Source of the DNA: an uncultured Gammaproteobacteria bacterium
GTDB taxonomy: Bacteria > Patescibacteriota > Microgenomatia > JAMCZE01
NCBI GenBank assembly: GCA_964576435.1
Contig: CAZNUP010000001.1
Span: 226,345-290,344, forward strand
Length of the DNA stretch: 64,000 nt
Direction of reading: 5' to 3'
A program made the translations under genes and the position numbers. The notes beneath the pieces were generated by a model. It searched no databases. It worked only from the letters and a program-made list of their open reading frames with translations, and was not told where the DNA came from. Below are positions 2,710 through 31,140 of this stretch, piece by piece (position 1 is the first letter of the stretch; the number at the start of each line of letters is the position of its first letter).

Positions 2710-3377
2710 TTTTGAGCTAAAACAAATAAACTATCCCTTAACTCTGGGACAAGTTGACTAGGGTAAAAAACCAAGGCCTTACCAATCTTAACTCCAAAGC
2801 CCTCCTGATGCAATTTTTGTCGCATTGGGTTGTAAGCTCCAAAATGTTCAGCCTTTTTAACCTCAAATGAAGCCTTTTTAACCTCAGTTTTAACTTCAGA
2901 TAAAGTAAATTCTCTGTTGTGTCTGTGATAAGGTGATCCTTCAAATTGAAATATTGGAAAGTTCTGATTTTTTCCTGCCATAAGTTCCAATCGATGCTTT
3001 ATGTGGACTGCATTTGGTGTGGTAATCAAAAGAAAACCTCCAGGTTTTAAGACTTGGTGAAACTTCTTAAGATAAACTTGTGGATCGTATAGCATGTGTT
3101 CCATAACCTCTGAAAAAAGTATTAGGTCAAAGGTGTCTGCTTTGAATGGCATTTTGTCCGATTCAATATTCAGAGGAATAATATTTTTTTGATTTACCTT
3201 CTCGTGTTCCGAACTAATTCCGTACATGTCAAACCCCATGTCTTTTAGGCTCTTGAATAAATCCAGAGGAAAGCAACCAACGTCCAAAATTTTAGCCCCA
3301 TGAGGAAGATTTAATTCTTTGACTCTCTTTAATATATATTTATATCGATCTTGGTGTATTAAATAGTATTCGCTCAT
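2706..3377 (-). CDS. Class I SAM-dependent methyltransferase (type 11-like)
   Basis: ILDVGCFPLD glycine-rich SAM motif I; LKPGGFLLITTPN motif. Confidence 0.7.
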   Translation of the reverse strand: MSEYYLIHQDRYKYILKRVKELNLPHGAKILDVGCFPLDLFKSLKDMGFDMYGISSEHEKVNQKNIIPLNIESDKMPFKADTFDLILFSEVMEHMLYDPQVYLKKFHQVLKPGGFLLITTPNAVHIKHRLELMAGKNQNFPIFQFEGSPYHRHNREFTLSEVKTEVKKASFEVKKAEHFGAYNPMRQKLHQEGFGVKIGKALVFYPSQLVPELRDSLFVLAQK

Positions 3378-8830: not shown

Positions 8831-10252
8831 TTAGCTTATTCGTGGGAAAAGGGGAGTTGAAGCTTTAACCTTTCCACTAAATTGTCTTAAAATCTTTTCT
8901 GACGTTTCGGGCAAAAACGGTTGCAAATTATAAGCAATCAAATTTATCTCCCGAACAGCCCCTTTGAGAAAATTACTTAGATCCCTTTCCTCTAATTTCC
9001 AAGGTTCCTTTTCGCTTATAAGTAAGTCCAGTTGCTTGATTCTTTTCCATATATTTTGGATTGCGAAATCAATCCGGTATGTTTTTAGGTTTTCCTCTAT
9101 ATCCTCAAACACATCCACATTTGGACTGCTTTCAAAGCTGGATTTCTCTGCTAGTTTTGCCACTCTCGCAACAAGGTTTCCAAGCCCATTAGCAAGGTCA
9201 GCATTATATGCTTCCTTGAACTTTTCATCAGAGTAATCGCCATCATCAAAAAGTGGAGTTTTAGCAAGGAAATAATATCTAACCGGATCTGTTCCAAACT
9301 TTTCAATAAGTTCAAAAGGGTCTATGGTGTTACCAAGGGTCTTTGATATTTTTTGGCCATTAACTGTGTAGTATCCATGAATTAAGACGGCTTTAGGTAG
9401 TGACAATCCCGCAGATAATAAAAATGCTGGCCAATAAACTGCATGAAATCTGGTGATTCCTTTACCAATTACATGCACATCCGCTGGCCACCATTTTTTA
9501 TAGCTTTTCTCGTCCCATCCAAACCCTACCCCAGTTTGGTAAATATTAAGTGCGTCAAACCAAACATAAATTCTTTGAGAATCGTCTCCAGGAACTGGAA
9601 TGCCCCAATTTTTTGCTCGTTCGTTTGATCTGGAAATTGATAAATCAGGAACATCTCCAGAAAGCCACCCAAGTACTTCATTCTTTCTAAAGTCTGGATA
9701 GATTTTTAGCTCGTTGGAATTTATAATTTCCAAAAGCTTTTCTTTATATTTAGACAGTTTGAAAAAGTAGTTTTCCTCTTCAACTTCATCCAACTTTTTT
9801 CCCGGATGTTCAAAACACTCTCCTTTTTCGTTTAACTCTTCTGGCTCATAAAATTGTTCGCACCCAACACAATAAAGTCCCTTATATTTTTTCTTATAAA
9901 TATCTCCATTTTTGGCACAAAGTTCCCATAGCTTTTGGCTGGCAGCATAATGGTGCCTTTCATCACTACCTCTTTGCCAAATATCGATGGACACATTTAA
10001 TTTCTTAACAAGATCTTCAAACTCACCATTATGTAAATCAATAAACTCTCGAATTGGTTGTCTGGCTTTTTCAGCGGCCTGTACATTTTTGAGCGCATTT
10101 TCATCTGCGCCGGACAAATATCTAACTTCTTTTCCATTAAGTCTATTAAACCTTGCAATTGCATCTGCTTGCACAGACTCGAGTGCCCACCCAATGTGAG
10201 GTTTTGCATTTACATAAGGTATTGCAGCTGTGATATAAAATTTATTATTCAT
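8831..10252 (-). CDS. metG: Methionyl-tRNA synthetase (short form)
   Basis: AIPYVNAKPHIGWALE (HIGH region) and KISKTLGN (KMSKS). AGGAG SD 8 nt upstream. Confidence 0.9.
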   Translation of the reverse strand: MNNKFYITAAIPYVNAKPHIGWALESVQADAIARFNRLNGKEVRYLSGADENALKNVQAAEKARQPIREFIDLHNGEFEDLVKKLNVSIDIWQRGSDERHHYAASQKLWELCAKNGDIYKKKYKGLYCVGCEQFYEPEELNEKGECFEHPGKKLDEVEEENYFFKLSKYKEKLLEIINSNELKIYPDFRKNEVLGWLSGDVPDLSISRSNERAKNWGIPVPGDDSQRIYVWFDALNIYQTGVGFGWDEKSYKKWWPADVHVIGKGITRFHAVYWPAFLLSAGLSLPKAVLIHGYYTVNGQKISKTLGNTIDPFELIEKFGTDPVRYYFLAKTPLFDDGDYSDEKFKEAYNADLANGLGNLVARVAKLAEKSSFESSPNVDVFEDIEENLKTYRIDFAIQNIWKRIKQLDLLISEKEPWKLEERDLSNFLKGAVREINLIAYNLQPFLPETSEKILRQFSGKVKASTPLFPRIS

Positions 10253-10379
10253 AATTTCTCCTATTTTAGCATTAAAAAATCCCGCCGTTTGCGGGATTAA
10301 GAAATGGAAATTCCTTCCCGCATGGGACTATGGTCTTTCCGTCATCATAAAGACTTTATCTTTCATTAGGTTTATTATA
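10253..10379 (-). promoter_or_regulatory. metG 5' leader with mutually exclusive antiterminator/terminator (attenuator). TATAAT at the 5' end; terminator hairpin 10279-10297 plus U6.
   Basis: On the minus-strand RNA, GCGGGA occurs twice (plus 10316-10321 and 10280-10285), flanking a single UCCCGC (plus 10291-10296). The downstream pairing gives AUCCCGC-AAACG-GCGGGAU followed by UUUUUU; the upstream pairing excludes it. AGGAG SD and AUG follow 25 nt later. Confidence 0.5.
10274..10297 (-). terminator. Intrinsic-terminator hairpin (7-bp GC stem, 5-nt loop) plus U6, within the metG leader / downstream of the 10380..10811 gene
   Basis: Plus strand: aaaaaa-atcccgc-cgttt-gcgggat. Confidence 0.55.
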
Positions 10380-25416: not shown

Positions 25417-26105
25417 TTTGTTTTCTTAGCTGCTGCTTTTTTAACAACTGGTTTTTTTGTAACTTCTTTTTTAACTTTTGATTCTTGAACTGTCTTAGCT
25501 TCCTTTACTTCAACTTTTTCTTCTTTAACTACTTTTGTTTCTTTCATTTCCAAGGCTTCTTCCATGATAATTATTTTGTCAGCTCTCAAAATTTCGTACA
25601 CATTAACTTGGTTCATTGGTAAGACTTCAACTCCTTGAATATTTCTAGCTGCTCGGTAAACATTTTCTCTATACATGTCAGTAACAATTAATGGTTTCTT
25701 TGTTGTAATAAATTCAGCAATATCTTTTGTCTTCCCAGAAAGTTTAGCCATATCTGAAAAGACAACAACTTCACCAGCTCTATTCTTAGATGAAAATGCA
25801 CTCGCTACTGCTTGTTTTCTCATTTTGTCAGAGAGGGTTAGTGAGTGATCTCTTGGTTTTGGTGCAAATGCAATACCTCCACCAACAAAGATTGGGGCTT
25901 TTCTATCTCCATGTCGAGCATTGCCTGATCCCTTTTGTTTTTGATACTTCTTTCGTGTTTTTGCAACTTCTGCTCTTGTCAAAGCACTTTGTGTTCCTTG
26001 TCTTTGATTTGCAAGATAAACTCGAACTGCTTGTGCCACAAGTTGTGGGTTTTCAGTTGTGTTAAACATTTCTTTAGGTAGTGTTGGTTTGTCTACTAAT
26101 TTCAT
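25413..26105 (-). CDS. rplD: Ribosomal protein L4 with Lys-rich C-terminal extension
   Basis: L4 core plus about 50-aa KKEVTKKPVVKKAAAKK tail. Confidence 0.9.
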   Translation of the reverse strand: MKLVDKPTLPKEMFNTTENPQLVAQAVRVYLANQRQGTQSALTRAEVAKTRKKYQKQKGSGNARHGDRKAPIFVGGGIAFAPKPRDHSLTLSDKMRKQAVASAFSSKNRAGEVVVFSDMAKLSGKTKDIAEFITTKKPLIVTDMYRENVYRAARNIQGVEVLPMNQVNVYEILRADKIIIMEEALEMKETKVVKEEKVEVKEAKTVQESKVKKEVTKKPVVKKAAAKKTK

Positions 26106-26680
26106 ATTTTTGTAATTGTCAAAAGTCCTCCATTATTTCCAGGAACTAAACCTCTAACTAAAATCAAATTTTCTTCAGGTAATATTTTGAAAACTTCCAA
26201 ATTTCGAACTGTTGCTATTCCTGTTCCCATGTGTCCTGCCATTTTCTTTCCTTTAAAAACTCTTCCCGGTGTAGTTGTTGATCCAATTGATCCAGGATGT
26301 CTTGGTCTAACTGATTGTCCATGAGTTGCTGGTCCACCATGAAATCCGTGTCTCTTCATGACACCAGCAAAACCCTTACCAATGGTTGTTCCAGAAACTT
26401 TGATTTTATCTCCAGGATTAAAAACGTCGGCAATTGCTATTTTTGTGCCGAATTCTTTTGGTTCTTCGCTTGGTGATTTTTTGATGTATTTTGGAGTAAT
26501 TTGGAGATCTTTAAGTTGTCCTTTGAGAGCTTTAGAAGGGTGTTTTTTAGATCCGAATACAACTTGATTATTAGTTATTACAGTCATTGGTTCAACAAAA
26601 ACAAACGTGACAGGAATTCGCATTCCTTGTGCGTCATAGTCTTGTCCTTGTTTTTGTTTGATTCCGTAAAACTTGTTCAT
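26102..26680 (-). CDS. rplC: Ribosomal protein L3
   Basis: GKGFAGVMKRHGFHGGPATHG. ATG chosen at 26680; the ORF-track start at 26689 is a TTG lying inside the U-tract. Confidence 0.9.
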   Translation of the reverse strand: MNKFYGIKQKQGQDYDAQGMRIPVTFVFVEPMTVITNNQVVFGSKKHPSKALKGQLKDLQITPKYIKKSPSEEPKEFGTKIAIADVFNPGDKIKVSGTTIGKGFAGVMKRHGFHGGPATHGQSVRPRHPGSIGSTTTPGRVFKGKKMAGHMGTGIATVRNLEVFKILPEENLILVRGLVPGNNGGLLTITKI

Positions 26681-26856
26681 AGACAACAAAAAAGTCCCGG
26701 AACGGGACTCAATTTAATGAGTTTTCCCTACTTCCGACTAACAATTGTTAGTGAGTTTAGGTCTCAGTAACATTAGGCTCTATTTTACAATAGAAATGAG
26801 GAAAAATCAACTGAAGTGGTGGTTCTCACTAGGAAACGCCTCACCTGCTCACAAAG
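26681..26856 (-). promoter_or_regulatory. rplC leader: sigma70-like promoter, 16-bp perfect palindrome, antiterminator/terminator switch abutting the rplC AUG
   Basis: Minus strand has TTGATT-N17-TAAAAT (plus 26805-26810 and 26782-26787). Palindrome ACTAACAATTGTTAGT at 26737-26752. GGGA...CUCA...UGAGUCCC helix is alternative to the AGUCCCG-GAA-CGGGACU (26693-26709) hairpin followed by UUUUUUGUUGUCU-AUG. Confidence 0.5.
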
Positions 26857-27297
26857 CTATCTCAGATTAGGTAGAAACTCAGGATCTTTTACATCTCTTT
26901 TTATGGTTTGAGAATGTGCAACAACTTCAGCTAGTGTAATTTTTGGGTCGTTTACAATAAGTTGAACCGCATAGACTTGGCCCGCACCAACATCTTCGTG
27001 TGTTTTTATTTCAACTCCAAGCTTTCGTAGGCCATCTTTTTGGTCATGAAGTCTAAGTGCGGGTGTAGAAGATATATATTTTTTAGTAATCTCGTTTGCG
27101 CGATTTAGCTGGTCTACTAGATAACTGCCTTTAATTTGTAGGGCCTCGTCCCATTTTTTTGATTGCCTATCGCTCTCAGCTGCAATATGTTCTTGGAATG
27201 TTTGACGAGGGTTATATTTATCTTTTTCAAGTTCAGATTCAACTTGCGGAATATCGTGGGTTATTCTGTCAATTTCACTTATCGAAGTCTCGGGCAT
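26857..27297 (-). CDS. Hypothetical protein (147 aa) inserted between rpsJ and rplC; no recognisable domain
   Basis: Clean ORF in its own frame, starting at internal Met MPETSISEID...; non-repetitive K/E-rich sequence. The ORF-track start at 27405 overlaps the rpsJ 3' end in another frame. Confidence 0.5.
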   Translation of the reverse strand: MPETSISEIDRITHDIPQVESELEKDKYNPRQTFQEHIAAESDRQSKKWDEALQIKGSYLVDQLNRANEITKKYISSTPALRLHDQKDGLRKLGVEIKTHEDVGAGQVYAVQLIVNDPKITLAEVVAHSQTIKRDVKDPEFLPNLR

Positions 27298-27316: not shown

Positions 27317-27625
27317 CTACATCTTAATCTCAATATCCACACCCGCTGGGAGTTCAAGGTGCATGAGTGAATCAATTGTTTTGTCTGTAGGTTCAAGGAT
27401 ATCAATTAGTCTTTTGTGAACTTTAAGGTAAAAATGTTCTTGGGAATTTTTATCAGTGAAAGGGGATTGGTCAACTGTTATAAGTGAAGTGTCTGTTGGT
27501 AAGGGGACTGGACCCACAACTGAAGCACCAGTCCTAATGGCGGCGTCAAGAATAATTTGACAGGTCGAATCAAGGACGCGACCGTCATAAGCTTTTAAAC
27601 GTACTCGAATTCTGCCTTTTGGCAT
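27317..27625 (-). CDS. rpsJ: Ribosomal protein S10
   Basis: IRVRLKAYDGRVLD...; GGGAGGG SD upstream. Confidence 0.9.
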   Translation of the reverse strand: MPKGRIRVRLKAYDGRVLDSTCQIILDAAIRTGASVVGPVPLPTDTSLITVDQSPFTDKNSQEHFYLKVHKRLIDILEPTDKTIDSLMHLELPAGVDIEIKM

Positions 27626-27657: not shown

Positions 27658-27688
27658 TGCAAAAGAAAAAGGCCGTTTGGCCCTTTTC
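27658..27688 (-). terminator. Intrinsic terminator/attenuator downstream of tuf (AAAAGGGCC-AAAC-GGCCUUUUU-CUUUUG on minus strand)
   Basis: GGCC/GGCC stem extended by A-U pairs, then a U-rich tract. Located between the tuf stop and the rpsJ start. Confidence 0.45.
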
Positions 27689-27708: not shown

Positions 27709-28896
27709 TTAAGCTGTAATCTTAGAGACAACTCCTGCTCCAACTGTGTGTCCACCTTCTCGGACTGCGAATCGCATTCCTTCTTCGAGGGCCACTGGTT
27801 GAATGAGTTTAACTTTCATTTTTGCATTATCTCCAGGCATCACCATTTCGACGCCTTCTTGTAGTGTGACTTCACCAGTTACATCAGTCGTTCTGATATA
27901 AAACTGTGGTCTGTATCCACTAAAGAATGGAGTATGTCGTCCGCCTTCTTCTTTTGAAAGAATGTAAACTTCTGCTTCAAACTCAGTGTGTGGAGTAATA
28001 GATCCTGGCTTAGCCAAAACCTGTCCTCTTTCCACTTGGTCTTTTTCAACTCCTCGGAGTAAAAGTCCAACGTTATCTCCAGCTTGACCTTCATCAAGTT
28101 GTTTTCTGAACATTTCAACTCCGGTGACGACTGTCTTTTGAGTTGGTTTAAGCCCAACGATTTCAAGTTCTTCGTTGACCTTAACAACACCGCGCTCAAT
28201 TTTTCCAGTAACCACTGTTCCTCGACCTTTGATCGAGAAAACGTCTTCAACTGGCATAAGCATTGGCTTATCAAGTTCTCGAACTGGTGTTGGAACGTAT
28301 TCGTCAACAGCGTTCATAAGCTCCATGATTTTCTCTTCCATGGCGGCATCGCCTTCAAGAGCTTTAAGAGCTGAACCTTTGATAACTGGTGCTTTATCAC
28401 CATCGAATCCGTATTTAGTCAAAAGTTCTCGAACTTCGACTTCAACGAGATCCAAAAGTTCTGGATCAGATACCATGTCAACTTTATTAAGGAAGACAAC
28501 GATAGCTGGTACGTTAACTTGTTTGGCTAAGAGAAGATGTTCTCTTGTTTGTGCCATTGGACCATCAGCAGCGGACACGACCAAAATGGCTCCGTCAACT
28601 TGAGCGGCCCCAGTAATCATGTTCTTGATATAGTCAGCGTGACCTGGCATATCAATGTGTGCATAATGTCTTTTTTCTGTTTCGTACTCGACGTGAGTAA
28701 TGTTAATGGTGACTCCTCGAGCTTTTTCTTCTGGGGAGTTATCAATTTGATCATAAGCTCTAGCTTGGGCTAAACCCTTCTTTGCTAAAACTGTTGTAAT
28801 TGCGGAAGTTAATGTAGTCTTTCCATGGTCAACGTGACCCATGGTCCCAATATTAACGTGGGGCTTGTTTCGTGTGAATTTTGCTGCATCTGCCAT
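27709..28896 (-). CDS. tuf: Elongation factor Tu
   Basis: [23 protein letters not shown] motifs; 395 aa. Confidence 0.95.
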
Positions 28897-28994: not shown

Positions 28995-31088
28995 TTACTT
29001 TTTTGCAACAATTTGCTCCTGAATATTCTTTGGAGTTTCTTCGTAGTGTGATGGTTCAATATAAGCACTTGCTCGGCCTTGAGTAAGTGATCTAAGTTTT
29101 GTTGTGTATCCAGAAATTTCAGCAAGTGGGACAAGAGCTAGAACAATTGTTGCATTGCCTCTTTGATTAGTTCCTAAAATTTGTGCTCTCTTCGAGGAAA
29201 GATCACCGATAACATCTCCCATGAATTCATCAGGAGTTGTTACTTCCACTTTCATGATTGGTTCCAAAAGAACTAGTTCTGCATTTTTAGCTCCGTCTTG
29301 AAGAGCCATTGACCCTGCAATTTGGAAAGCAACATCTGAAGAGTCAACATCATGGAATGACCCATCAAAGAAAGTAACTTTAATATCAGTTAATGGATAT
29401 CCAGCTAATACACCATTGAGAGCTGCTTCTTTTGTTCCTTTTTCGACAGATCCAAAGAATTCTGAAGGAACTGCTCCACCTTTAATTTCATTAACAAATT
29501 CCCATCCTTCACCACGTGGTTTAGGTTCGACTTTAATAACGGCGTGACCATATTGTCCACGACCTCCAGTTTGTCTAATATATTTTCCTTCGCCTTCTGC
29601 TGCTTTCTTAATTGTTTCTTTATAAGCAACTTGTGGTGCACCAACATTTGTATCAACTGACATTTCATCTTTCATTCGTCTCACCCACACCTCAAGTTGT
29701 AATTCCCCAACTCCAGAAATAATTGTTTGTCCAGTTTCTTTGTCACTCTTTACATGAATTGTTGGATCTTCTTCCATGACTCTTTGAAGTGCAAGTCCGA
29801 GTTTTTCCTGATCAGATTTTGATTTTGGTTCAATAGCAAGAGAGATAACTGGTTCTGGGAATGTAATACCTTCAAGAACTATTGGATTTGCTTGTTCTGT
29901 AAGTGTGTCCCCAGTTCTTGTTTCTTTAAGTCCAACTACTGCAACAATTTCTCCAGCAAAAGCTTCTGTAATTTCTTCTCTATTATTTGCGTGCATTAGA
30001 AGTAATCGGCCGATTCTTTCCTGTGTTCCTTTAGTAGCATTCCAAACATAGGATCCAGATGTTAATTTTCCGGAATAAATTCGAACGTAATAGAGTTTTC
30101 CAACGTGTGGATCGAGTTGTACTTTGAAAGCCATTCCAGTAAATGGTTCTTCGACTTTTGCTTGTCTTGTAACTTCTTCTTTTGTTTTTGGATTAATCCC
30201 AGCGGTAGCAGGTTTATCAAGAGGCGATGGTAAGTAATCAACAATTGCGTCGAGTAATGGTTGCACACCTTTATTTCTAAGTGATGTGCCTGTGTATGTT
30301 GGAACCAATTTATAATCAACAACGGCTTTTCTAAGTGCCGCTTTAAGTTCCGAGATGGTTGGGATTTCTCCATTGAGATATTTCTCAAGAAGTTTCTCAT
30401 CAGTTTCAGAGATTCTTTCAACAAGTTCTTGTCGATATTTTTTAACAAGTTCTGGATCAAGTCCTTCTGGAATTTCTTTCTTGATCTCATATTTGGCTCC
30501 AAGCTCATCTCCGCCCCAAATCCAAGCCTGTTCTTCCATGAGGTCATAAACACCTTTAAATGTATTTTCAACACCAATTGGTAAAACCATTGGAAGGGGA
30601 GTGATGCCAAGCCTTTCTTTAATAGCTTCAAGTGTTTTATAGAAGTTAGCACCAAGTTTATCAATCTTATTGATGTAGATAATTCTTGGAACTTTATATT
30701 TGTCAGCCTGTCTCCAAACTGTTTCAGTTTGTGACTGCACTGTTTCCTCAGCATCAAGAACTGTAACAGCTCCGTCAAGGACGCGAAGTGATCGTTCAAC
30801 TTCAGCTGTAAAGTCAACGTGACCAGGTGTATCAATGATGTTAATTCGGTGATCTTTCCAAAATGTAGTAGTTGCGGCAGAAACAATTGTGATTCCTCTT
30901 TCTCTTTCCTGCGTCATCCAGTCCATCTGTGTGTCACCTTCATCAATATCACCAATTTTGTAAGTTTTTCCAGTGTAGTAAAGAAGTCGTTCTGTTGTAG
31001 TAGTTTTTCCGGCGTCAATGTGAGCAATGATTCCGATATTTCGGACTTTGTCTAAAGGTGTATTTCTATTTTTTGTTTGATCGGACAT
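28995..31088 (-). CDS. fusA: Elongation factor G
   Basis: AHIDAGKTTTTERLL, DTPGHVDF; 697 aa. Confidence 0.95.
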   Translation of the reverse strand: MSDQTKNRNTPLDKVRNIGIIAHIDAGKTTTTERLLYYTGKTYKIGDIDEGDTQMDWMTQERERGITIVSAATTTFWKDHRINIIDTPGHVDFTAEVERSLRVLDGAVTVLDAEETVQSQTETVWRQADKYKVPRIIYINKIDKLGANFYKTLEAIKERLGITPLPMVLPIGVENTFKGVYDLMEEQAWIWGGDELGAKYEIKKEIPEGLDPELVKKYRQELVERISETDEKLLEKYLNGEIPTISELKAALRKAVVDYKLVPTYTGTSLRNKGVQPLLDAIVDYLPSPLDKPATAGINPKTKEEVTRQAKVEEPFTGMAFKVQLDPHVGKLYYVRIYSGKLTSGSYVWNATKGTQERIGRLLLMHANNREEITEAFAGEIVAVVGLKETRTGDTLTEQANPIVLEGITFPEPVISLAIEPKSKSDQEKLGLALQRVMEEDPTIHVKSDKETGQTIISGVGELQLEVWVRRMKDEMSVDTNVGAPQVAYKETIKKAAEGEGKYIRQTGGRGQYGHAVIKVEPKPRGEGWEFVNEIKGGAVPSEFFGSVEKGTKEAALNGVLAGYPLTDIKVTFFDGSFHDVDSSDVAFQIAGSMALQDGAKNAELVLLEPIMKVEVTTPDEFMGDVIGDLSSKRAQILGTNQRGNATIVLALVPLAEISGYTTKLRSLTQGRASAYIEPSHYEETPKNIQEQIVAKK

Positions 31089-31110: not shown

Positions 31111-31140
31111 CAAAAAATTAGTGCCGACTATTTACGGCAC
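31111..31140 (-). terminator. Intrinsic terminator/attenuator between rpsG and fusA (GUGCCG-UAAAUAGU-CGGCAC then UAAUUUUUUG)
   Basis: 6-bp GC-rich stem at plus 31121-31140; A6 at plus 31112-31117 gives U6 on the transcript. Confidence 0.45.

Follow-up and report, generated by a model that had tools for sequence, protein, structure and literature searches.

The leader of rplC, the gene for ribosomal protein (r-protein) uL3, in a stretch of 64,000 nucleotides (nt) from contig CAZNUP010000001.1 of a Microgenomatia bacterium (the whole of which we call the window) is very probably a regulated attenuator, and it is best read as a new structural class of ribosomal-operon transcription attenuator. 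It lies just upstream of rplC (26102–26680, minus strand; recognized from the list of open reading frames [ORFs], a PF00297 match, and a 100% match to database protein P0001) and combines a promoter, a nearly invariant 5′ domain that forms a hairpin, and an intrinsic terminator whose 5′ arm can also pair within an antiterminator. More tentatively, we propose that this cis-acting attenuator gates a large r-protein operon by means of a hairpin that an r-protein would stabilize, in autogenous feedback.

The case for the element is one of conservation. Its single pieces (promoter, palindrome, fold) do not rise above chance when taken alone: promoter-like sites number 24, versus 26.5 expected from shuffling, perfect 16-nt palindromes number 3 in the window, versus 1.8 in simulations, and the fold of the leader has a z-score of only −2.0. 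We regard the leader as real because it is conserved, not because any one piece exceeds chance. Contigs were fetched for 13 uL3 homologues (52 to 83% identity), and metagenomes were scanned for the core pattern, giving a sample of 19 distinct copies including that of the window (related loci carry labels of the form L0xx, or L100); in all 19 (the window and 18 other distinct loci), the element sits directly upstream of rplC. R1, a covariance model trained on the first 17 of these copies, scores 51 to 95 bits on all members and finds exactly one site in the 64-kb window (26687–26777, minus strand; 93.9 bits, E ~1e-22), with the next best site at 15.6 bits. The same model has no match in 18 nonmember rplC loci, including a Daviesbacteria locus, and nowhere in the window or the related loci was the leader seen other than 5′ of rplC. 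Across the copies, a core of ~52 nt has a mean identity of 80%, compared with 50% over the initial 240 nt of rplC and with 37% over the upstream 60 nt; its consensus is AAUGUUAGUUAG-CCCUAAACUCACUAAC-[loop]-(GU)UAGUYGGAWGUAGGG. Between the U-tract and the rplC ATG there are usually 1 to 10 nt, and up to 45 nt in three copies. A scan of a genome collection with L3 peptide patterns returned only distant L3 proteins (~40% identity), yielding one locus from Candidatus Daviesbacteria (L002) in which the motif is absent. As judged from these sequences, the leader appears confined so far to a Microgenomates clade whose L3 proteins are at least 52% identical.

In three of the related loci, the annotated start of rplC is placed inside the leader (2501–3151 in L086; 2501–3187 in L090 and L091), the misplaced ATG being part of GUAGGGAUGACC (L086) or ACUAAAUGGUG (L090). 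The resulting L3 proteins of 216 aa (L086) and 228 aa (L090) read through the terminator, the true start being the downstream MNTF(Y/F)G; because of such misannotation, the leader is hidden in databases.

The promoter claimed in a preliminary description of the window, TTGATT and TAAAAT with a 17-nt spacer (26810–26782, minus strand), is borne out by a consensus scan (−35 box, 26805–26810; −10 box, 26782–26787), with a predicted transcription start at about 26775–26773. A TAnnAT box recurs at a fixed distance in all members, 7 to 9 nt 5′ of an invariant AUG (GUG in L090 and L091); in relatives, −35-like TTGnnn hexamers lie 17 to 18 nt farther upstream (by our own reading of the alignments), and about half of the members have an extended −10 (TGn). 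In every copy, the −10 box is 5′ of the terminator, and transcripts from the leader promoter must therefore traverse it.

That terminator, GAGUCCCG-UUC-CGGGACUU followed by six U residues (26688–26710, minus strand; 8 pairs, 5 of them GC), ranks first among the terminator-like sites of the 12 kb that were scanned. The hairpin occupies 26710–26692, and its U-tract (26693–26688) lies 8 nt before the rplC ATG, followed by GUUGUCU-AUG. Here, the preliminary description was right about the GC hairpin and the run of U residues but not about their details: the loop on the RNA is UUC, of which the GAA originally given is the plus-strand complement, and the U-tract does not run straight into the start codon, the tail reading UUUUUUGUUGUCU-AUG. 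A terminator is present in each of the 19 copies, although its U-run is interrupted in some (L088, L092, L097). The stems are lineage-specific (AGUCCC/GGGACU, GCCCCG/CGGGGC, UCCCGCC/GGCGGGA, CCCCG/CGGGG, and CCCGC/GCGGG), and the search for covariation in relatives that had been suggested at the outset gave a strong result for this helix: 4 pairs carry changes in both strands, pairing holds in 94.7% of cells, and none of 500 shuffles reaches the covariation score.

Overlapping the 5′ arm of the terminator is the second helix that had been described, GGGA-AAA-CUCA-UUAAAU-UGAG-UCCC (26704–26728, minus strand; −9.1 kcal/mol; GGGA at 26728–26725, UCCC at 26707–26704), an antiterminator that in the window engages 7 of the 8 nt of the terminator 5′ arm. 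An equivalent can form in all 19 copies, pairing 4 to 9 nt of that arm, with a sequence and an intervening hairpin that are again lineage-specific. In 17 copies, its first nucleotides are the GGG of the conserved UAGGG; in L099 and L100, it begins a few nucleotides downstream. Together, the promoter, the covarying terminator, and the universally possible antiterminator support the earlier view that rplC is preceded by the architecture of a regulated attenuator.

The conserved 5′ domain forms what we call the sensor hairpin (26726–26762, minus strand), which is both the RNAalifold consensus and, for the 17 sequences whose 5′ domain was folded by itself, the minimum free energy (MFE) structure. 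In the window, it consists of helix P1 (CCUA at 26761–26758 with UAGG at 26730–26727), a 3×3 internal loop (AAC/AAG), a UC:GG helix, a bulged C at 26736, and an apical stem, ACUAAC:GUUAGU, and the family consensus is the same in outline: CCUA:UAGG, an RAC/AWG loop, UC:GG, a bulged pyrimidine, ACUA(AC):(GU)UAGU, and an apical loop of 3 to 8 nt. All stem pairs are kept in all copies, the P1 series running through C-G, U.G (L088 and L097), and U-A (L099, CUCUA:UAGAG); because they are otherwise invariant, these stems cannot be tested by covariation. The perfect 16-nt palindrome reported just past the predicted start, ACTAACAATTGTTAGT (26752–26737, minus strand; about +22), is indeed there, and it amounts to the apical stem of this hairpin plus an AAUU loop. 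A competing fold arises from region 1, GUUACUGAG (26763–26771, minus strand; GUUAGUUAG in most members), which pairs with CUCACUAAC (26755–26747) to give an alternative 5′ hairpin, H1. Among the 19 sequences, 83.5% of H1 cells are paired, versus 13 to 40% when the partner is slid, with no double-sided covariation.

For the nascent RNA of the window (before the 3′ arm of the terminator), the MFE fold combines H1 with the antiterminator, at −15.7 kcal/mol; in L082, the sensor hairpin with a free terminator 5′ arm is formed, at −15.6 kcal/mol. Within the subgroup of the window, such nascent folds lie within about 1 kcal/mol of each other, and members of the family differ in the mean probability of an unpaired terminator 5′ arm, from 0.33 to 0.95. 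Modeled energies this close are what a ligand-tipped switch would look like. Two further structural candidates were discarded: a helix, “P0,” that would close the structure by pairing the 5′ strand with the segment past UAGGG, as several MFE folds suggest, is no more stable in cognate than in noncognate combinations (−2.13 versus −2.14 kcal/mol), and a correlation of alignment column 11 (C/G) with the A/U of GGAWG (a possible C.A/G.U isostery) is broken by L092 and L100.

From the observed promoter, terminator, antiterminator, and hairpin, and from their conservation, we infer a switching logic and, with it, an effector. The attenuator would gate the entry of RNA polymerase into the large r-protein operon from rplC on. 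A dedicated sigma-70-type promoter would start the transcript at ~26774, and its first ~50 nt, nearly invariant, would have two possible folds. In the ON state, region 1 would pair with CUCACUAAC as H1, leaving UAGGG free; the GGG(A) of this motif would then pair with the (U)CCC of the terminator 5′ arm, and the antiterminator so formed would permit read-through into rplC. In the OFF state, CCUA..CUCACUAAC would instead pair with GUUAGU-C-GG..UAGG as the extended sensor hairpin, locking the GGG away, and the GC hairpin and U-tract would form 8 nt before the ATG and stop transcription (in terms of successive strands, 1:2 with 3:4 gives read-through and 2:3 with 4:5 gives termination). An r-protein present in excess over free rRNA would bind and stabilize the sensor hairpin and so increase termination, thereby closing an autogenous loop. 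Such an effector would confer homeostatic logic, and by analogy we place a trans-acting protein, most likely an r-protein of the operon itself, first among the possible effectors, as a tentative choice. Invariant helices, an internal loop, and a bulge suggest sequence-specific recognition, although the invariance could alternatively reflect overlapping constraints, as each strand has two partners and lies in an ORF.

Several points weigh against an r-protein as the effector. The stems of the sensor hairpin never covary, which is uncommon among hairpins that bind proteins; why an invariant start codon should lie where transcription begins is left unexplained; full-length MFE folds mostly favor the hairpin plus terminator without any ligand; and binding of an r-protein to the leader is itself a prediction made by analogy. 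Nor does the leader point clearly to an rRNA site that it might mimic. Smith-Waterman comparisons of the leader to the Escherichia coli 16S, 23S, and 5S rRNAs give scores no better than shuffles. Helix 35 (H35) of 23S rRNA with its flanks does resemble the hairpin (GAAC-CG-A-CUAAU[GUUGAAAA]AUUAG-CGGAUGA, E. coli 23S nt 733–764 at L098 2791–2823, versus AAAC-UC-A-CUAAC[loop]GUUAG-U-CGGAAGU, window 26733–26762, with most members reading CGGAUGU), but random hairpins of the same composition equal this resemblance in 35% of trials (P ~0.35), and the matching upper stem is variable in the bacterial Rfam LSU consensus. The loop of H35 comprises positions 745–752 (PMC4605293), and the H33–H35a region is stabilized by uL2, uL22, and bL34 (PMC9687910); the resemblance is kept only as a lead. 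A likeness to 5S loop E (GAUGGUAGU / CGAGAGUAGGGAA) and an 8-mer shared with 16S rRNA (AGUCGGAA) are at chance level, and a boxA-like reading of UGCUCUAAAC (L097 and L088) was dropped, as its match to the E. coli boxA, compared by eye, is limited to 6 nt and lacks the U-rich core.

What the invariant start codon might be for is addressed by the explanation that we rank second, a serious though less probable rival, namely, ribosome-mediated attenuation through a leaderless leader ORF of 8 to 12 codons. The transcript would start at, or 1 nt before, the invariant AUG, and a 70S ribosome would lie over region 1 together with the 5′ strand of the hairpin (CCU AAA CUC ACU AAC): with a ribosome on the ORF, no hairpin would form, UAGGG would stay free, and the antiterminator would turn rplC on; with no ribosome, or with fast termination, the hairpin and then the terminator would form, making translation status, not free r-protein, the gate. 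The predicted mini-ORF of the window, AUG UUA CUG AGA CCU AAA CUC ACU AAC AAU UGU UAG (26738–26773, minus strand), would yield MLLRPKLTNNC, its product in most members being MLVSPKLTN. Its start codon is kept in all 19 copies in the position described above, the frame stays open through the 5′ arm of the hairpin in every member with a stop that always falls in the apical loop or at an invariant UAG, and a 3-nt deletion in L090 is in frame. As with trp, pheST/pheM, and the mycobacterial leaderless polycysteine short ORFs, a short ORF with a start codon thus overlaps the first strands of alternative hairpins that end in a terminator. Many genes in the window lack a Shine-Dalgarno (SD) motif, and where rpsJ abuts the element, its stop is 12 to 20 nt before the mini-ORF AUG, a distance that would allow re-initiation. 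A leader of like layout precedes another gene of the window, metG (8831–10252; methionyl-tRNA synthetase, PF09334). There, at 10253–10375 (minus strand), TATAAT is followed after 7 nt by ATG AAA GAT AAA GTC TTT ATG ATG ACG GAA AGA CCA TAG (encoding MKDKVFMMTERP), with tandem Met codons, and then by a UCCC-AUGC-GGGA hairpin, a GCGGGA:UCCCGC antiterminator, a UCCCGC-AAAC-GGCGGGA terminator with six U residues, an SD motif, and the ATG. This region, noticed through a weak R1 match and possessing a 1:2/2:3/3:4 hairpin set, looks like a Met-sensing, possibly leaderless, leader-peptide attenuator of an aminoacyl-tRNA synthetase gene; it makes leaderless leader-peptide attenuation plausible in the organism of the window and raised our prior for the rplC mini-ORF. 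Still, the ORF lacks the marks of an encoded signal: among the 19 members, there is no regulatory codon run and no conserved frame or peptide, with the frame over the conserved nucleotides shifting in L099 (MLSSLNSL). Third codon positions are invariant, which argues that the constraint acts on the RNA, and the nucleotide conservation is far above what a leader peptide needs. Openness of the frame is not significant, since two of the three frames through the core are open anyway (we estimate p ~0.2 for all four core stop triplets avoiding the AUG frame). The distance from the mini-ORF stop to the GGG also differs among members (12 versus 17 nt), so that a trp-like logic of a ribosome at the stop would not be uniform, and coupling transcription to translation in this direction would be positive, not homeostatic, feedback for ribosome synthesis. 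Likewise less probable than an r-protein switch is the related reading of the leader as a direct ribosome sensor, in which the presence of a 70S ribosome on the nearly invariant 5′ domain determines whether the antiterminator or the terminator forms; the invariant hairpin might then also be bound by an r-protein, giving two inputs.

The remaining explanations dispense with ribosome and r-protein altogether. It is improbable that regulation is absent altogether, with the element serving tuf-rpsJ(-ORF) transcription as a leaky terminator or an insulator, combined with an internal promoter, or else being a stand-alone small RNA (sRNA) of ~85 nt with rplC expressed by read-through. Terminator-like hairpins do precede fusA and rpsJ in the window as well, the promoter-to-terminator unit of ~85 nt is of sRNA size, and rpsJ abuts the element in six relatives, such that upstream transcripts enter it; however, a pure insulator is expected 5′ of a promoter and not 3′ of a conserved −10 box, it would need neither a 52-nt invariant domain nor a conserved antiterminator overlap, and it would not be found only 5′ of rplC and never elsewhere in the window or related loci. 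Quite improbable is a small-molecule OFF riboswitch, in which the internal loop and bulge would bind a growth-state metabolite (an alarmone or nucleotide) that stabilizes the hairpin and causes termination. The aptamer-like architecture overlapping an antiterminator/terminator platform, the near-isoenergetic states, and the invariance of unpaired nucleotides would all suit such a switch, as would a weak, partial match to the glutamine riboswitch (glnA RNA, RF01739) around CGGAAGUAGG, where a hairpin, this motif, and a second hairpin are shared in the subgroup of the window. Yet this match, at 17.7 bits, is below the gathering score of 35 and covers only model positions 9 to 40 of 53, the 3′ strand of P1 and the E-loop (positions 41 to 53) being missing; most members have GGAUG and no match, even at E values up to 10 in a 141-nt search (L087, for example, has none at E ≤ 10), and identity with the glutamine riboswitch is accordingly rejected. 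No Rfam family reaches threshold across the 19 loci, and a 35-nt hairpin with noncovarying stems is a poor fit to known aptamers. Riboswitches are not known to occur 5′ of the S10/spc r-protein cluster. As for the palindrome, the preliminary description noted that its size is typical of dimeric-repressor operators; that it is one is highly improbable, even though the window and four closely related loci have a perfect 8+8 palindrome just 3′ of the promoter. Elsewhere, its centre is 3 to 8 nt long and of unrelated sequence, and the half-sites are shortened to ACUA/UAGU, so that their spacing varies by at least 5 nt; because the centre varies in length and sequence while the RNA stem ACUA..UAGU is kept, the palindrome is not a DNA operator of fixed spacing. 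Its frequency in the window is at chance, and no second copy occurs there even when 3 mismatches are allowed.

With an attenuator responding to an r-protein as our preferred reading, the leader would function like those of the S10 and L20 types but is a member of no described family. At gathering thresholds, Rfam 15 finds one tRNA elsewhere in the window and nothing in the 19 related loci, and searching the leader at E ≤ 10 gives only six chance-level matches. This negative says nothing on homology to the E. coli S10 leader, which is itself absent from Rfam 15; compared directly, model R1 scores only 8.1 bits (E 1.2) on its sense strand, indicating no homology. The likeness to that leader seen by the preliminary description is hence one of architecture, not of sequence or structure. 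Both are 5′ leaders of an S10-type cluster that place a terminator hairpin and U-run just before the first cistron, both have an upstream hairpin (required for control in E. coli), and autogenous logic is expected here as well; in E. coli, uL4 mediates NusA-dependent attenuation together with translational repression (PMC3616713, PMC10931766). The E. coli leader, however, precedes rpsJ, whereas that of the window precedes rplC, with rpsJ upstream beside tuf and often separated by an unrelated ORF; at ~87 nt with one sensor hairpin, it is also much shorter than the 172 nt and hairpins HA to HE of E. coli and, unlike the latter, has an explicit antiterminator alternative. The mechanism proposed here is the same as for the infC-rpmI-rplT leader in Bacillus subtilis, where L20 stabilizes one of two mutually exclusive folds such that an intrinsic terminator forms (PMC1865079), although operon, RNA, and clade differ, and although mimicry of 23S rRNA is documented for the L20 leader while none is established for the rplC leader. 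In gene position, the closest counterpart is a candidate L4 r-leader of Archaeoglobi directly 5′ of rplC-rplD-rplW-rplB (Eckert and Weinberg 2020; PMC7247131, Table 1), which is archaeal and has a different motif.

Within Microgenomates, the Candidatus Daviesbacteria locus L002, whose L3 is 40% identical, carries a different rplC leader of ~155 nt (2838–3003) with a parallel layout: TTGCAT-17-TAAAAT, 8 nt, the codons AUG UUU AAA AAC ACU UCU UAA, an 8-bp palindromic hairpin (UUCUUAAG-UUUA-CUUAAGAA), and a long hairpin with six U residues right before rplC (fold z-score, −3.5). Judging from the sequence of this leader, rplC may widely be preceded in Microgenomates by a design of AUG at +1, hairpin, and terminator whose sequences are unrelated.

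In the window (GC content, 38%; nearest named relatives of its L3 among “Candidatus Microgenomates” and “Patescibacteria group” bacteria), rplC is the first gene of a co-directional minus-strand run that reaches ~14577 (~12 kb) and continues with rplD, rplW, rplB, rpsS, and rplV, as read from ORF translations, and further co-directional ORFs. Upstream on the same strand lie fusA (28995–31088), tuf (27709–28896), and rpsJ (27317–27625), and between rpsJ and the leader an unannotatable ORF of 146 aa (ORF146, 26857–27297) without a match in a Pfam search, separated from rplC by 176 nt. GC hairpins with U-rich tails occur at 31121–31140 (minus strand), 32 nt 5′ of fusA, and at 27668–27685 (minus strand), 42 nt 5′ of rpsJ and 24 nt past the tuf stop; these probably act as partial terminators, dividing the str/tuf/S10 gene string into segments. 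The rplC ATG at 26680 lacks an SD motif, as had been reported, but this is no peculiarity of rplC: the motif is also missing at fusA, tuf, rplW, rplB, and rplV, and the starts of these genes and of ORF146 are preceded by A/U-rich sequence, mostly with no SD motif, so that translation initiation in this organism appears largely SD independent. ORF146 has a TATATT box only 6 nt 5′ of its ATG and is, for this reason, possibly leaderless.

In many relatives, a short ORF occupies the slot between rpsJ and the leader (1216–1437 in L081, 2153–2368 in L082, 1361–1648 in L085, 2223–2441 in L086, and 227–532 in L087); in six loci, the slot is empty, with rpsJ directly adjoining. These ORFs share no detectable similarity with one another or with ORF146, which rules out a conserved protein in this position; the slot is either a hypervariable insertion spot in a rigid gene cluster or a set of spurious ORFs. 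Overall, the upstream neighbor of the leader may be rpsJ (the six loci), an unrelated short ORF, a phosphoglucomutase gene, or a divergent gene, and the promoter and leader therefore travel with rplC as a single unit.

In Candidate Phyla Radiation (CPR) bacteria, genomes are reduced, ribosomes are smaller, and ribosome biogenesis factors number roughly half of what is usual (PMC12641178); the ultra-small Microgenomates belong here. A full-text literature search on ribosomal protein leaders yielded no article dealing with cis-regulatory RNAs or ribosome homeostasis in CPR bacteria. The rplC leader would be an RNA of a new structural class, absent from Rfam 15, that is conserved above the sequence level of the proteins that it controls, and it offers a defined 35-nt hairpin and an 87-nt switch amenable to in vitro testing with recombinant r-proteins. 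That unrelated RNAs adopt the same attenuator layout before rpsJ in E. coli and before rplC here suggests that the solution arose independently. If the mini-ORF is what the switch reads, the leader would represent a new way of coupling ribosome synthesis to translation, and, should a ribosome on the 5′ domain be the sensor, translation itself would gate the transcription of nearly all core r-protein genes in these minimal-genome bacteria; the Met-Met leader of metG suggests that attenuation by leaderless ORFs could be a general regulatory style in the lineage.

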